Shown here piece by piece: positions 3,161-35,393 of a stretch of DNA of 40,724 nt. Numbering within the stretch: position 1 is the stretch's first letter; every line of letters starts with the position of its first letter. The notes under the pieces are model-generated. The model was not told the origin of the DNA. It ran no database searches and worked only from the letters and a program-made list of their open reading frames with translations. This DNA is from a virus (taxonomy: Duplodnaviria; Heunggongvirae; Uroviricota; Caudoviricetes). Where the stretch lies: positions 1 through 40,724 of the IMG/VR virus record IMGVR_UViG_2565956726_000012; one strand, 5' to 3'. The translations under genes and the position numbers were made by a program.

Positions 3161-5623
3161 TCAATTCCCTGTTAATTGCAAAACTTGCTCTTCCAGCTTT
3201 TTAACCCTGCGTCTCATCATCGCAGATTCCAGAATCAGAGCCTCTTCATAACGGATACCGTAACATTCACCAGCCTCGACGGCTTCGCGTACCAGAACCT
3301 TTGTCTGTATAAGTGGGTAAACTCCTGCAGAATGCTCTTCTTCCGTCACATCCCTGTATTCTGCCGGGGCCTCATTCCACTTGTCATAACAGATAAATGC
3401 CAGTCGTGACACATCTATGCCTTCATTCTGAAATACACTGATAACATGCTGCGCAACTGCACCAAAGTGCCATCTTGCTCCGTCTTTACCTTTCACTTCG
3501 ATCCTGTCAAGGTACTGGTATGAAACCCATTCCACTCTTTCCCATGCGTCCAGTATTTTCTCATCAATAACCTCTGGAGCAGTCTTGAAACGCGCATCGG
3601 ACAGCACCGTAAACGCTGACTGGGTAAATCCCCCCGACCATGCACGACCAGCCAACCCAAGAGAATAAGTATTCGTTGTCGATGGTGTCATGGCTGAATC
3701 AGAAAACTGTATATATTCTGAATTTCCAGTAGATATTCGAATATTTCCATTTATTAGCGACATAGTGCCTTTAGTATTATCACTATTGAATAATTTCAAT
3801 TGCGAACTTATACCGCCTCCCACAGCCAGAGATACATCGCCTTCAGCAAGCATTCTGAATTTATCTGCAGAAACAAGCGTCTGGTTAGCAAGGTTAAAAT
3901 ATTTAACCCACCATTCAAAACGCCCTGACATAGTCCCAACGTACTGACCAAGCGCAGGGACGTGAACAACATTGCTATTTGTAGTGCCGTCTATACTGGA
4001 AATACCAGTCACCGCTGATGCAGAACTCAGAATATTATTTCTGTCACCCGGATGTTTAATTTCAACAAAGTTCCTGATACACCCTTCCTCGAAGGTAACC
4101 ACGCCGGAAGAACTATACATGGGGAATATTGACGCATAATTACTGCGTGCAGCATCTAAGAAACGAATGGTTGTAGATGTCTGCAGATCTCCTGATTCAT
4201 TTTTCCCATCACACCCAGTCATTAGAATATTACTGGCAATATTATTATTTCCCTGAACGGTGACGCCGTGCGCCTGCTTTGCGTCCGATTCAGAGTAATC
4301 AACCAGCACATCCGAAATCAGGTTACCAGTCCCCTTGCCAACAACTACTGCGGCGTATTTTGGGTTGTTAGCCATTACACTGCTAATGATATTATTCGTT
4401 GGGGCAGTTTCCGTCTCAGTTCCATTGTAAACAACGTGCTGACACTCTTCACCAATAACATTGCTGACAATGTTATATTTTGCTGCTGTTTTAAGTTCCA
4501 CTGCACCAAACTGAGGATAATTTCTGGCTATCACACCATCAATTAGCGTATTTTGCGATGAATCAAAAAGCACACAACCTGCTTTTTTATTATTTGCGAA
4601 CCCTAAATACTCTCCTCTTATATCTCTAACAATGTAACCTGACGGAATACCATTATCCGGATAAGCGATCAAGCTAAATCCTGGTCCTCGCGTATTTGTA
4701 AATCTGATATTTTTAACCGATACATCATGGCCACCTGAAAATGACACCTGGTGTCCCTGCACACTATCATCTGATTTATTTCCCATAATTGTTAGCGTAC
4801 TAAGCATGCCACCATCGGGCATGTTAAAAACCAGATGATTACCATCTCTGTCATACTGTTTTATCGTTCCCCCACCTGTTCCGTACAAGCCACAACGTGA
4901 AAGAGAAACTAAAGATGTATTGAATACCCCTTCCGGAACAAAAACACTGCTAAACGAATGTAATGATTTTGTAAAAGCATCCTTGTTATCATTTAAGATT
5001 CCATTTTGAGCTCCAAAATCCTTAATGCTGACACCATCACGCATCTTATCCTGGAACGTTCTGTATACCGCTCCAGAACCATACTGAATAAACCAACCAA
5101 AACCACCAATAACTCCGGCGATTGCAGCATCGACATAATTACGCATTGAGCGATTATTTACAGCGTCCTGCTCAAGTGATGGATCGGCAAGGTTAGATAT
5201 TCTGTTTTGCTTTGCATCGTAATATTTTGCAAGCAAAGATGGTTTCATCAATGCACGTCTGAACCACCCAAAACATCGCTGGATCAGCATCGTCAGGTAG
5301 TCAAATGCATCCTCATGAACTTCGGGGAAAAATTTTCCCTGATTGCGAAGATCAGTCTCCTGCACCACATCAAGCACACGCTCTATCGTGATTCGCCAGC
5401 CAGCAGCAAGCGGCGACGGAAGAACCACTGCACCGCCACTATAAGTTCCCGCCCCTGTTACCGTATAACCAGCATCCAGCACTAGTTTTGTAACGTTACC
5501 GTTAAGGTCAGACACCTGAACAACCAGGTCGGATTTTTTGAAAATACGGAAGGTATACGGAAATGATGTCGTAACGCCGTTACCTGTGTATTCGTTGTGG
5601 TCAACTTCGGTTGAGACCGTCAT
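3161..5623 (-). CDS. Tailspike/tail fiber with T7 gp17-like N-terminal adaptor domain, central beta-helix-type region and C-terminal intramolecular chaperone (peptidase S74) domain
   Basis: N-terminus NEYTGNGVTTSFPYTFRIFKKSDLVVQV resembles T7-type fiber N-termini; C-terminal SDARFK motif followed by a coiled-coil tail typical of self-cleaving chaperone domains; GGAG RBS. Confidence 0.8.
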   Translation of the reverse strand: MTVSTEVDHNEYTGNGVTTSFPYTFRIFKKSDLVVQVSDLNGNVTKLVLDAGYTVTGAGTYSGGAVVLPSPLAAGWRITIERVLDVVQETDLRNQGKFFPEVHEDAFDYLTMLIQRCFGWFRRALMKPSLLAKYYDAKQNRISNLADPSLEQDAVNNRSMRNYVDAAIAGVIGGFGWFIQYGSGAVYRTFQDKMRDGVSIKDFGAQNGILNDNKDAFTKSLHSFSSVFVPEGVFNTSLVSLSRCGLYGTGGGTIKQYDRDGNHLVFNMPDGGMLSTLTIMGNKSDDSVQGHQVSFSGGHDVSVKNIRFTNTRGPGFSLIAYPDNGIPSGYIVRDIRGEYLGFANNKKAGCVLFDSSQNTLIDGVIARNYPQFGAVELKTAAKYNIVSNVIGEECQHVVYNGTETETAPTNNIISSVMANNPKYAAVVVGKGTGNLISDVLVDYSESDAKQAHGVTVQGNNNIASNILMTGCDGKNESGDLQTSTTIRFLDAARSNYASIFPMYSSSGVVTFEEGCIRNFVEIKHPGDRNNILSSASAVTGISSIDGTTNSNVVHVPALGQYVGTMSGRFEWWVKYFNLANQTLVSADKFRMLAEGDVSLAVGGGISSQLKLFNSDNTKGTMSLINGNIRISTGNSEYIQFSDSAMTPSTTNTYSLGLAGRAWSGGFTQSAFTVLSDARFKTAPEVIDEKILDAWERVEWVSYQYLDRIEVKGKDGARWHFGAVAQHVISVFQNEGIDVSRLAFICYDKWNEAPAEYRDVTEEEHSAGVYPLIQTKVLVREAVEAGECYGIRYEEALILESAMMRRRVKKLEEQVLQLTGN

Positions 5624-5727
5624 GTTAAATCTCCAGATAGTCGCAGCACCCGTTGCGCCGCATATCTGGTTATTCTATTACCCAAAAAACCATATATGGA
5701 TAGAAAGACTGTGAATATGAATAGATA

Positions 5728-5742
5728 TTACCTTTCAGGTAA
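5728..5742. promoter_or_regulatory. Operator copy A (TTACCTTTCAGGTAA) of the ATTACC-N5-GGTAAT family
   Basis: Perfect 17-bp palindrome ATTACCTTTCAGGTAAT; lies between minus-strand TTGAAA -35-like hexamer and the tailspike gene, and upstream of the plus-strand island. Confidence 0.6.
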
Positions 5743-5779
5743 TTTTCAAAACGTGCTGGATAGCAAACAAATTATTTGA

Positions 5780-5799
5780 TACTGTATAAATATACAGTT
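5780..5799. promoter_or_regulatory. LexA (SOS) box TACTGTATAAATATACAGTT
   Basis: CTGT-N8-ACAG with AT-rich spacer and TA flanks, near-consensus; 20 bp upstream of ATG 5820. Confidence 0.7.
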
Positions 5800-5819
5800 A
5801 TTGCATGGAGAAGATTAAG

Positions 5820-6077
5820 ATGCAGCAGTATCACTATCCACTGGAAGAGGGATTTACCGAAAGGATTCACACGCCGGGAGGCGTCAGGTCACTGGTGGAG
5901 GGATCGCACTTGATGAAATTACTCCGGGATCTCGATAAGGATGGATTTAATGTCGATGGCCCACTTGCCGAACTGACTGCACTGATTAACTACGTCACCA
6001 GCTCACAGATGTCTATGCAGGATCTGCAAACACATCTCGACTATTGTGCCGAACAATTACGAAAACAAACCAGATAA
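5820..6077 (+). CDS. Small standalone antirepressor C-terminal (ANT/KilAC-like) domain protein; candidate SOS-inducible antirepressor
   Basis: 85 aa; clearly alignable to the C-terminus of the downstream Bro-N antirepressor (GVRSLVEGSHLMKLLRDLDKDGFNVDG..AELT vs GVLGLTENSLLMNLLNQLQDDGHDVSG..AELT); GGAG RBS before ATG 5820; LexA box upstream. Confidence 0.55.
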   Translation: MQQYHYPLEEGFTERIHTPGGVRSLVEGSHLMKLLRDLDKDGFNVDGPLAELTALINYVTSSQMSMQDLQTHLDYCAEQLRKQTR

Positions 6078-6080
6078 GGT

Positions 6081-6123
6081 TTGCAATTACCAAGTGAAGT
6101 GCTTATATTTACCTTTGCGGTAA
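6081..6123 (+). promoter_or_regulatory. Sigma70-like promoter (TTGCAA-17-TATATT) with operator copy B (TTACCTTTGCGGTAA) abutting the -10
   Basis: Near-consensus -35/-10 with 17-bp spacer; operator starts at last base of -10. Confidence 0.6.
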
Positions 6124-6236
6124 ATTTACATCGCACTCCTCTTGTGCCATAGTAATCGGGCACTGGCAAAATCCAGTGCCGGGATTGGCGTCCCGAGTTA
6201 CTAAGTGGCGCATACCACGCCAGACGTGGTTTTTTT
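6116..6236 (+). ncRNA. Putative structured small RNA or leader element (c4/sar-like antirepressor control RNA) ending in an intrinsic terminator
   Basis: No ORF; hairpins GGCACTGG/CCAGTGCC (6159-6180) and CGGGA/TCCCG (6180-6195); terminator at 6214-6236; lies between a strong promoter and the ant gene. Confidence 0.35.
6214..6236 (+). terminator. Rho-independent terminator upstream of ant
   Basis: Stem ACCACG/CGTGGT, loop CCAGA, followed by 7 T. Confidence 0.65.
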
Positions 6237-6392
6237 ATGCGTTAAGCACAGCTATATCCGAATTATGGTGGGCTGGGCAGGGGTCCGAAAGGACGCCGGT
6301 ACCACTTAGGCCGGTACGCCAACCTTGTCCAGTTCACCACCAGTAATTGGCGTTGCGGTGGTGATTAAAATCACTAAGTGGAGATAACCACC

Positions 6393-7103
6393 ATGGCTAA
6401 TGCTCAAACTGCCATCTTCAAATTTGAATCTGTTAACCCTATCCGTTCCATCATTATCGATGGCCAACCATGGTTTGTAGCCCAAGACGTTTGTAGTGCG
6501 CTGCGCATCCAAAACGTCACCCAAGCACTTGAAAAACTGGATGATGATGAAAGGTCTATGTTCAACATAGGGCATGAATATCGTGCAATTTTTGACAGCC
6601 GAGTAAAAGAGATCAACATCATCTCCGAGTCAGGCCTCTACACACTGATCCTCCGCTGCCGCGACGCAGTGACACCGGGCACTATCCCCTACCGCTTTCG
6701 TAAATGGGTTACAGGTGAGGTTCTTCCTCAGATCCGCCGCACCGGAAGTTACATTAAAAACTCGCTCCCGCAGGAAGAACGCATAAAGATGGTTGCCGAC
6801 CAGGTTGCAAACGCCACAGCATCAGCAGTGATGCAGGCAATGAAGATAGAGAACAAAACCTACAGCGCCCCGCTGAAGCCCGGCTACCGCAGCCTGATTC
6901 ATTCTCCGTCTGGTGTTCTCGGCCTGACGGAGAACTCATTGCTGATGAATCTGCTGAATCAGTTGCAGGACGACGGGCATGATGTATCGGGCGCGGCGGC
7001 GGAGCTGACCACCATGTTTTGCTACATCGTTGGTGTGAGCAAATGCCTGCGTGATATCCAGACGCACGCGGAGTACATCAACGACAAGGCAGGGTTCTTC
7101 TGA
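6393..7103 (+). CDS. ant: Antirepressor, Bro-N N-terminal domain plus ANT-like C-terminal domain
   Basis: Bro-N-like N-terminus (FKFESVNPIRSIIIDGQPWFVAQDVCSALRI); GGAG RBS 9 nt before ATG 6393; the GTG at 6378 in the track is an unlikely start. Confidence 0.8.
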   Translation: MANAQTAIFKFESVNPIRSIIIDGQPWFVAQDVCSALRIQNVTQALEKLDDDERSMFNIGHEYRAIFDSRVKEINIISESGLYTLILRCRDAVTPGTIPYRFRKWVTGEVLPQIRRTGSYIKNSLPQEERIKMVADQVANATASAVMQAMKIENKTYSAPLKPGYRSLIHSPSGVLGLTENSLLMNLLNQLQDDGHDVSGAAAELTTMFCYIVGVSKCLRDIQTHAEYINDKAGFF

Positions 7104-7148: not shown

Positions 7149-7191
7149 TTGCAGACCGGGGGTGAATAGCGTACTATTACCTCAAGGGTAA
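7149..7191 (+). promoter_or_regulatory. Sigma70-like promoter (TTGCAG-17-TACTAT) with operator copy I (TTACCTCAAGGGTAA)
   Basis: Same -10-abutting operator architecture as copy B. Confidence 0.55.
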
Positions 7192-7251: not shown

Positions 7252-7431
7252 ATGCGAAACGAAAAATTGCAGATGCGTAGAGCGCAAGCTGCCGCAAGAC
7301 GTTCTTTCAATGGAAGCGTAGAGTACGTAAAAGTTACTATGGCAAAAGATCACGCAAGTCGCGTATCCCGCGCTTTCTTTGATTCTCGTAACAATAAGGA
7401 AAATTATGAGTTCGTCTGCGTCGCAGAATGA
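7252..7431 (+). CDS. Small basic protein (59 aa), candidate antitoxin-like partner
   Basis: GAGGTAA RBS 5 nt before ATG 7252; Arg/Lys-rich; 3-prime end overlaps start of next gene by 26 nt; below the 60-aa cut-off of the ORF track. Confidence 0.35.
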   Translation: MRNEKLQMRRAQAAARRSFNGSVEYVKVTMAKDHASRVSRAFFDSRNNKENYEFVCVAE

Positions 7432-7951
7432 TAAAAATCAAATTGTCAGATATAAGGGTCGAGTATTGCATACGCAAAATTTCTCGGCCCTTTGTGCATC
7501 TGATCTTGAGCTGAAGAAAGTATCTGATGCCTTTGCCCAGTATTGGAAAACGGGATACCATCCATCTCTTGGTAAAGATGCTGCATTTGCTCGTCCGACA
7601 GAAATGCTTAAACTAAATGTCAGGCATGCTCATGTCGATAACCAAGACTATATTCCAGAAGATAGTGATAAAAAACACACTGGTAAAAAATCATCTTGGG
7701 ATGCATGGAAAAATATAGCGTCTGTACAAGTAAAATGCATACCAACAAGTGATTGCTTTTTAGTTTATTCGGTAAATCACAATCGTGATGCGCTGGTTAT
7801 GTTTTTTGTTGACGCAGATGCCCACAACATAACTGAGCAAGAAGAGTTTAAAGAGGCAGCAATCACTATCAGTTATCAATTCTTTGAGAAAACAAAAACA
7901 GAACCAATGCCTTTAGAAGAAGATCTTTTTTCTGATAAATGGAAGGAATAA
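7406..7951 (+). CDS. Hypothetical protein with possible YafO-like toxin N-terminal region plus acidic C-terminal extension
   Basis: AAGGAAA RBS before ATG 7406; segment GKDAAFARPTEMLKLNVRHAHVD recalls a YafO-family motif from memory only; AT-rich codon usage; own promoter and terminator. Confidence 0.45.
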   Translation: MSSSASQNDKNQIVRYKGRVLHTQNFSALCASDLELKKVSDAFAQYWKTGYHPSLGKDAAFARPTEMLKLNVRHAHVDNQDYIPEDSDKKHTGKKSSWDAWKNIASVQVKCIPTSDCFLVYSVNHNRDALVMFFVDADAHNITEQEEFKEAAITISYQFFEKTKTEPMPLEEDLFSDKWKE

Positions 7952-24972: not shown

Positions 24973-25049
24973 GTGGCATTAGCTCAGTCGGACAGAGCAA
25001 CCGCCTTCTAAGCGGTTGGTCGCAGGTTCGAATCCTGCATGCCACGCCA
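24973..25049 (+). tRNA. tRNA-Arg (anticodon UCU), phage-borne
   Basis: 77 nt cloverleaf: 7-bp acceptor stem GTGGCAT/ATGCCAC, D-arm GCTC..GAGC, anticodon loop CTTCTAA, T-arm GCAGG-TTCGAAT-CCTGC, discriminator G plus CCA; closely resembles argU-type tRNA. Confidence 0.9.
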
Positions 25050-34808: not shown

Positions 34809-35393
34809 ATGAAAAGTATCCAGGACGTCCGCAGGCAAAATCTCAACGACTTGATCGACCGTGAATTCAATGGTGTTCAGACGCGGATGGCAGAAAAACT
34901 TGGAACTCAGGCAAATCTGGTAAACCGCTGGGCTCTTGGCAAGAAGGTTATCGGCGACCAGGTTGCGCGAAAAATTGAAGCTGCCGCCAATAAACCCCGT
35001 AACTGGCTTGATATCGATCGCTCGCTTTCTCAGGAAGGTTTTCAGCCTGTCGGCCCAAGCGACATTGGTCAGCTGGCGGCTCACAACCTGGAACGCTGGA
35101 TGAGCGAAAGCCGCGACCTTTCAACGCAGGGAAAACTTCACCGCGCATCCGGCGTCGCCCAGGTGACAATCAGCCGCCTGTTAAACAATGAGGTCAGCGT
35201 TTCCATTTCCACCCTGGAGAATGTTGCATCCGCATTCGGGCGTCACGGATATGAACTACTGATTCACCCGCACGACCCTGCGACTATCAACTATGACCGC
35301 TCACGCTACGCATTGTTACCCGAAACCGAGAAAGCAAAGATCGAAAGTTACATTGAATTTGTCATCAACCAGAACGAAAAAAGCAAACAATAA
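34809..35393 (+). CDS. Prophage repressor with two tandem XRE-type HTH domains, no S24 peptidase domain
   Basis: Two HTH motifs (QTRMAEKLGTQANLVNRWALGKK and QGKLHRASGVAQVTISRLLNNE); no Ala-Gly/Ser-Lys autocleavage module; divergent from cro-like gene. Confidence 0.75.
   Translation: MKSIQDVRRQNLNDLIDREFNGVQTRMAEKLGTQANLVNRWALGKKVIGDQVARKIEAAANKPRNWLDIDRSLSQEGFQPVGPSDIGQLAAHNLERWMSESRDLSTQGKLHRASGVAQVTISRLLNNEVSVSISTLENVASAFGRHGYELLIHPHDPATINYDRSRYALLPETEKAKIESYIEFVINQNEKSKQ

Follow-up and report, generated by a model that had tools for sequence, protein, structure and literature searches.

An isrK-C4 antisense RNA module in front of the antirepressor gene ant of an epsilon15-like temperate phage

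What fills the stretch in front of the antirepressor gene ant in this phage DNA, and how would it act on ant? The DNA analyzed, called the window here, is a stretch of 40,724 nt (40.7 kb) and is an epsilon15/phiV10-like (Uetakevirus) temperate phage. Its region 6081-6392 is bounded by a 90-aa ORF (5805-6077) and by a 236-aa ORF with its ATG at 6393. A sequence-only reading had placed here a promoter, an RNA of about 120 nt with two hairpins and a terminator, and a repeat that could pair with the ribosome-binding site of ant, and had proposed a c4- or sar-type small RNA or an attenuator. We searched the region with the Rfam covariance models and obtained matches to two RNA families upstream of ant.

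6160-6236, plus strand: IsrK-type leader, the a1-b1 leader of the c4 operon (Rfam RF01394 isrK, 67.2 bits)
6160-6179, plus strand: leader hairpin 1
6180-6195, plus strand: leader hairpin 2
6214-6236, plus strand: intrinsic terminator, with a 6-bp stem (6214-6219/6225-6230), a 5-nt loop and a run of seven T residues (6230-6236)
6261-6344, plus strand: C4 antisense RNA (Rfam RF01695, 66.0 bits)
6393-7103, plus strand: ant, antirepressor of 236 aa (Pfam Bro-N, 1.8e-19; PHROG 130 "anti-repressor Ant", 8e-56)

Both matches span the full model (isrK 1-77, curated threshold 50 bits; C4 1-87, curated threshold 45 bits), and the proposal of a c4-type small RNA that controls ant translation is borne out by them. 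The two hairpins followed by the intrinsic terminator were also read correctly, as was the lack of any substantial ORF between the upstream promoter-like site and the terminator in the ORF list; nor is there an ORF between b2 (listed below) and ant. What has to be changed is the identity of the RNA that ends at the terminator, which had been taken for the c4 RNA itself. Since isrK lies at 6160-6236 and C4 at 6261-6344, the terminator-ended RNA is the IsrK-type, or a1-b1, leader. C4 sits beyond the terminator, and its supply therefore depends on read-through. The gene ant, whose product has an N-terminal Bro-N domain and a C-terminal domain, lies downstream of C4 in the same orientation.

The leader is ordered as hairpin 1, hairpin 2, linker and terminator, and its fold has an energy of -29.7 kcal/mol (z -2.87). 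The terminator is modest and would release a 77-nt IsrK-type RNA. A further family, RF03163 c4-a1b1, matches 6147-6199; its 44.3 bits fall just short of the threshold of 46.7. The isrK model (no clan) and the c4-a1b1 model (clan CL00128) thus match overlapping stretches, 6147-6236 in the window, and the P1 leader (L016 3218-3312) matches both, so that RF01394 and RF03163 appear to describe one RNA. We equate IsrK with the a1/b1 leader of the c4 operon because the P1 a1-b1 leader gives an isrK match which, weak and sub-threshold as it is (35.1 bits), includes the hairpin and the U-run. Hfq binding is a trait given for IsrK in the Rfam family description.

From the annotated ends of P1 C4, the mature C4 of the window is predicted at 6267-6341 (75 nt); the two RNAs share their ends, UAU/GGUGGG at the 5' side and CACCACC at the 3' side. 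The minimum-energy and centroid folds both agree with the family consensus (-43.1 kcal/mol, z -4.64) and consist of a long basal stem, a GAAA-capped hairpin and a second hairpin with a 9-nt loop. None of 200 shuffles folds as well as the core 6267-6341. The leader, C4 and the start of ant are tied together by two sets of complementary sites.

6185-6191, plus strand: a1, UUGGCGU, in the loop and upper stem of leader hairpin 2
6200-6208, plus strand: b1, ACUAAGUGG, in the single-stranded linker of the leader, with an 8-nt pairing core at 6201-6208
6302-6309, plus strand: b', CCACUUAG, in the 9-nt loop that caps the second hairpin of C4
6316-6322, plus strand: a', ACGCCAA, single-stranded, in the junction that follows the second hairpin of C4 on its 3' side
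6347-6353, plus strand: a2 target, UUGGCGU, in the ant leader
6373-6381, plus strand: b2 target, ACUAAGUGG, overlapping the ant Shine-Dalgarno GGAG (6380-6383)

The 9-mer ACTAAGTGG has exactly two copies in the 40.7 kb, those of b1 and b2, as had been noticed (0.12 expected by chance); two or more copies were found in none of 100 shuffles. Its second copy does overlap the Shine-Dalgarno of ant, which is located 9 nt before the ATG. The complement described at 6302-6310, CCACTTAGG, pairs with the 9-mer over eight of its nine bases; at the ninth position a G stands opposite an A, and the exact reverse complement of the 9-mer is absent from the whole window. It is b' proper, CCACTTAG at 6302-6309, that is complementary to CTAAGTGG. 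The suggestion that this segment could pair with either copy amounts to the b'/b1/b2 relationship of the P1 c4 system. The second triplet, TTGGCGT/ACGCCAA, had been missed by the sequence-only reading, as had the promoter-like site at 6125-6153 and the palindrome at 6107-6125. TTGGCGT alone is not rare (12 copies in the window versus 6.6 expected), and it is the placement of the triplet, not its rarity, that counts. The b duplex (8 bp) has an energy of -12.6 kcal/mol and the a duplex (7 bp) one of -10.3 kcal/mol, the same with both sets of targets. Folded by itself, the ant leader shows no significant stability (z -1.42).

The isrK and C4 elements stand in tandem at all 15 phage loci fetched, and across these loci the a and b triplets change in concert, as in the following three phages.

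phiV10: a triplet as in the window; b1/b'/b2 are ACTAAAAGG / CCTTTTAG / ACTAAAAGG
phiv142-3: a1/a'/a2 are TTGGTCT / AGACCAA / TTGGTCT; b triplet as in the window
Klebsiella phage Kp4865-1: a1/a'/a2 are TTGAGAC / GTCTCAA / TTGAGAC; b1/b'/b2 are ACTACAAAGG / CCTTTGTAG / ACTACAAAGG

A pattern scan of viral contigs yielded 120 unique related modules, and a T-run of at least five residues precedes C4 in 109 of them. In 69 of the 120, at least two C4-internal segments of at least 7 nt have an exact complement both upstream and downstream; when the C4 segments were swapped between modules, this held for 2.3 modules on average and for 7 at most (200 permutations). The sites keep fixed positions in the related modules, with a2 lying +5 to +10 nt after the conserved C4 3' motif TCACCACC and the downstream ORF typically starting about 8-11 nt after b2. 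Pair counts from a MAFFT alignment gave a covariation of 0.370 for a1/b1 with a'/b' (0.129 when shuffled) and of 0.279 for a'/b' with a2/b2 (0.116 when shuffled), values that none of 500 shuffles reached in either case and that exceed every slid control. The alignment is rough: about 11 of its sequences fit the pattern by chance and are no C4 modules, and the variable sites are partly misaligned. For that reason the alignment-free swap test is the cleaner measure. All six a and b sites co-vary across the relatives. After the 69 modules a long ORF follows directly in 45 and a short icd-like ORF in 20; an icd-less layout like that of the window is thus common.

Where transcription of the module would begin was deduced from promoter-like sites and from their conservation.

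6081-6109, plus strand: upstream promoter-like site, TTGCAA-17-TATATT, predicted start around 6116
6107-6125, no strand: operator-like palindrome of 19 bp, ATTTACC-N5-GGTAAAT (spacer TTTGC), between the two promoter-like sites
6125-6153, plus strand: second, conserved IsrK promoter (predicted), TTTACA-17-CATAGT with TG at 6145-6146, predicted start around 6160

The upstream site had been called near-consensus; a promoter-like site is indeed present, but with 9 of 12 consensus positions matched it is a decent one and not more. A site in this position, adjoining the palindrome, is kept in phiV10, Tyrion, phiv142-3, ZX5 and Klebsiella phage ST11-OXA245phi3.2, but not in TL-2011b, Kp4865-1 and ST512-KPC3phi13.3. 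Overall, most epsilon15-like relatives examined had the upstream promoter-like site, and the other phage groups did not. The second site is the conserved one: in 58 of the 69 modules the first IsrK hairpin is preceded, at a distance of about 6 nt, by the end of a promoter-like site, despite differing hexamers. The conserved leader start would be the one around 6160, giving the 77-nt RNA, and a 120-nt form would need the upstream promoter. In the minimum-energy fold of that longer transcript (6116-6236), the segment 6143-6156 pairs with the b1 region (6197-6212). Such a pairing would mask b1 in the longer isoform alone. This is only an idea, and stays so because covariation is absent: among the relatives the b1 core varies, but its 5' partner, which falls on the -10 region of the second promoter, does not.

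The palindrome overlaps the upstream promoter at its -10 and start and borders on the -35 of the second one, and among relatives its arms are constant and its spacer is variable. Its core, TTACC-N5-GGTAA, occurs in the window 10 times exactly and 15 times with up to one mismatch, versus 0.68 expected at up to one mismatch; the exact 15-bp copies start at 5728, 6109, 7177, 24636, 27814, 32346, 32408, 34739, 35451 and 35513. Copies precede the small-terminase ORF (27.8 kb) and flank a 194-aa HTH_3 ORF (34809-35393), which is a candidate repressor. These dispersed palindromes look like an operator set, as known for C1 of P1, and their recurrence suggests that the main repressor of the phage may also control the cassette, like C1 in P1.

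How would these elements work together? The P1 record gives the annotated order Oc4, P2c4, P1c4, a1, b1, C4, a2, b2, icd, ant1, and the window follows this immI order element for element, minus icd, with the palindrome and the two promoter-like sites as putative counterparts of the operator and the promoters. Similar to P1, C4 has the same fold, with b' in a loop and a' single-stranded. P1 C4, of about 77 nt, is cut from a longer precursor by RNase P, and both this processing and a Rho-dependent polarity have reportedly been described in P1. We consider the window very probably to carry a P1-type immI cassette that silences Ant by antisense RNA. Transcription from the conserved promoter (around 6160) and from the operator-flanked upstream promoter would enter the leader with a1 and b1, and termination at 6214-6236 would release the 77-nt IsrK-type RNA. 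By analogy with P1, read-through transcripts would be processed by RNase P into a stable C4 of about 75 nt, which would pair with a2 and b2 in trans, and possibly in cis, and block ribosome binding and hence the synthesis of Ant. The block would maintain lysogeny and superinfection immunity, with a specificity set by the a and b sequences. As the leader carries the same a1 and b1 as the real target, the short RNA could, after the example of IsrK in Gifsy-1, pair with a'/b' and counteract C4, and its accumulation would then switch ant translation on. Several observations count against this model: the palindrome touches both promoters, which makes the output of C4 in a lysogen uncertain, C4 can be made only by read-through of a terminator, the c4-a1b1 score stays just below its cut-off, and the ant leader has no significantly stable fold.

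The window also differs from P1 in several respects. It lacks icd, and b2 covers the Shine-Dalgarno of ant itself; the P1 route, in which icd is blocked and polarity acts on ant, is therefore inapplicable, and with no icd leader gene the direct target of C4 would be the ribosome-binding site of ant. The sites themselves are different, TTGACAG (a) and GTTAGTG (b) in P1 versus TTGGCGT and CTAAGTGG in the window, and so is the antirepressor, which is a Bro-N protein here. The palindrome of the window would be that of a different repressor and lies between the promoters, whereas the P1 operator lies upstream of them. Finally, the window is an integrating podovirus and P1 a plasmid prophage.

The second system to be considered is isrK-orf45(STnc1160)-anrP of Gifsy-1, where IsrK in trans lifts translation of the antirepressor more than 100-fold (Hershko-Shalev et al. 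2016, PMC4825925). It shares with the window a leader of the 77-nt type, the distance of the promoter, the kind of terminator, a C4-homologous segment and an antirepressor gene downstream; the b specificity is unlike that of the window, and the published model does not call the downstream RNA c4 (PMC4825925). The pairs G28:C162 and G31:C159 were tested there with compensatory mutations (PMC4825925). As that paper prints no sequence, its numbering was matched via our locus L121, which agrees with it at C18, G28, G31, A107, AUG 119-121, C159, C162, G173, C175 and in the 45-codon ORF. L121 reads UUGGCGU (a1) at positions 26-32 and ACGCCAA (a') at positions 158-164, both identical in the window; the pairs tested in Gifsy-1 are therefore a1:a' pairs. 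This ties the IsrK experiments of Gifsy-1 to the classical P1 c4 scheme.

In the view of the Gifsy-1 authors, their results reflect alternative folding of the read-through mRNA together with translational coupling through orf45 (PMC4825925). Could such a cis switch alone explain the window? In that case a1:a' pairing in cis would inactivate the mRNA, an IsrK-like RNA would open it and translation of the orf45 equivalent would be coupled to ant, with no C4 acting in trans. The full-length isrK match and the identity of a1/a' with the segments tested fit this account, which in Gifsy-1 has mutational and native-gel data behind it (PMC4825925). The orf45 equivalent of the window, however, has 14 codons (ATG at 6265, stop at 6307-6309); with 84 nt left to the ant ATG, coupling to ant is impossible here, and the Shine-Dalgarno of ant itself lies inside b2. 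A cis switch also leaves the covariation of a2/b2 with a'/b' unexplained, and the Gifsy-1 paper itself detected STnc1160, a stable processed RNA, downstream of IsrK (PMC4825925). We regard the cis switch alone as unlikely for the window, well behind the P1-type cassette. Within the P1-type cassette, we only infer in which direction and by which mode the IsrK-type RNA acts, because a1 mutations in cis raise basal translation in Gifsy-1 (PMC4825925), a result that a simple decoy model does not predict.

An attenuator is a still weaker candidate and, in our judgment, a very improbable one. It would make the terminator at 6214-6236 the regulated step, at which alternative pairings or a factor would decide on read-through into ant, and the repeats by-products. 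There is a terminator between promoter and gene, and the related CI RNA of P4 is reported, as cited in PMC4825925, to cause premature transcription termination of the replication genes. By its description, the P4 arrangement of CI with seqA and seqC resembles the window in having a processed small RNA between upstream and downstream complementary sites, and SeqA is regarded by the IsrK authors as a structural homologue of IsrK (PMC4825925); it differs in that CI acts on termination of replication genes and not by blocking the ribosome-binding site of an antirepressor. In the folds of the window, the terminator stem has no competing anti-terminator pairing, b2 lies at the ribosome-binding site and not near the terminator, and the three-way covariation involves a and b sites that lie outside the terminator stem.

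The sar alternative is extremely improbable. In the accessory immunity region of P22 (immI: mnt, arc, ant), the small RNA sar restricts translation of the antirepressor, and it is a true cis-antisense RNA from the opposite strand. An RNA of this type would have to cross the ant ribosome-binding site on the minus strand, where a weak terminator-like hairpin is found at 6392-6377. No minus-strand promoter-like site was detected in 5500-7000, the reverse strand of C4 carries no structural signal (z -0.26) and every Rfam match in the region is on the plus strand, so that a sar-type antisense RNA was rejected for want of both a minus-strand promoter-like site and minus-strand structure. That the region codes for small proteins, as the CDS annotated over the module in phages ZX5, yong2, SfV and Ayreon would have it, is just as implausible, since the ORFs of the window (56 aa and 34 aa) have no Pfam match, it is base pairing and not codons that tracks conservation, and the review summary of the Gifsy-1 paper notes conserved nucleotides with a variable amino-acid sequence.

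The isrK-C4 module is real and well conserved and is an ordinary member of described RNA families; both families, the layout and the mechanism have been described already, and the system is a known one. The comparison of relatives adds one thought on specificity. The a-site of the window (UUGGCGU) is that of Gifsy-1 and phiV10, its b-site (CUAAGUGG) is that of phiv142-3, and in the viral contigs one b is found with several a's and one a with several b's. We would tentatively propose, though we hold it for rather doubtful, that the IsrK-type leader is a dedicated decoy whose co-evolution with C4 is as tight as that of the real target, and that a and b reassort to give combinatorial immunity specificities. 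If this were true, the C4 and IsrK RNAs of unrelated prophages with one site in common could, in a polylysogen, regulate one another's antirepressors to some extent. The practical value of these results is in annotation and prediction: the a and b sequences allow one to predict which epsilon15-like, Stx, SfV-like and Gifsy-like prophages share secondary immunity or escape it. The understanding of how such systems work is unchanged.

The module is common to 257 phage records, including Stx phages and phages of Klebsiella, Yersinia, Hafnia and Salmonella, and is carried by 434 of 5,426 complete E. coli genomes (about 8%). Over 6081-6400, Escherichia phage HEMP4 matches best among the phages (99.4% identity), and in one RefSeq E. 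coli genome the module is 100% identical to that of the window. No RNA feature is annotated on the module among the E. coli matches listed, where the Bro-N CDS is the sole feature beneath the match. In several phages a protein CDS is drawn over isrK and/or C4, named "ash family protein" in ZX5 (C4 only), "Ash family protein" in yong2, "immunity region" in SfV and Ayreon and "putative antirepressor" in 118970_sal3. The loci with such a CDS are the following.

L005, 794-907
L009, 388-1071
L137 and L138, 365-1201
L012, 231-1373

In 37 of 75 related modules, the frame opened by an ATG in the 5' stem of C4 extends beyond C4 by more than 80 nt, into the region of the downstream gene, which looks commoner than chance would give.

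A few observations were made on the neighbors of the module. The 90-aa ORF (5805-6077, plus strand) is a stand-alone copy of the C-terminal domain of Ant (42% identity over 78 aa, E 1e-16, to aa 151-228) with its own palindrome copy upstream (5728-5742); both proteins match PHROG 450, of unknown function, and the product of the ORF may modulate or mimic Ant. In phage TL-2011b, an insert of about 1.1 kb (L002 1885-2973) separates the 90-aa ORF from the isrK module and takes the place of the upstream promoter region of the window. On the 3' side of ant, a 190-aa ORF (7379-7951, plus strand) is preceded by the palindrome copy at 7177-7191 and has a marginal match to the YafO toxin (25.6 bits, cut-off 25). 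A tRNA gene is present at 24973-25046 on the plus strand (Rfam tRNA, 73.3 bits).
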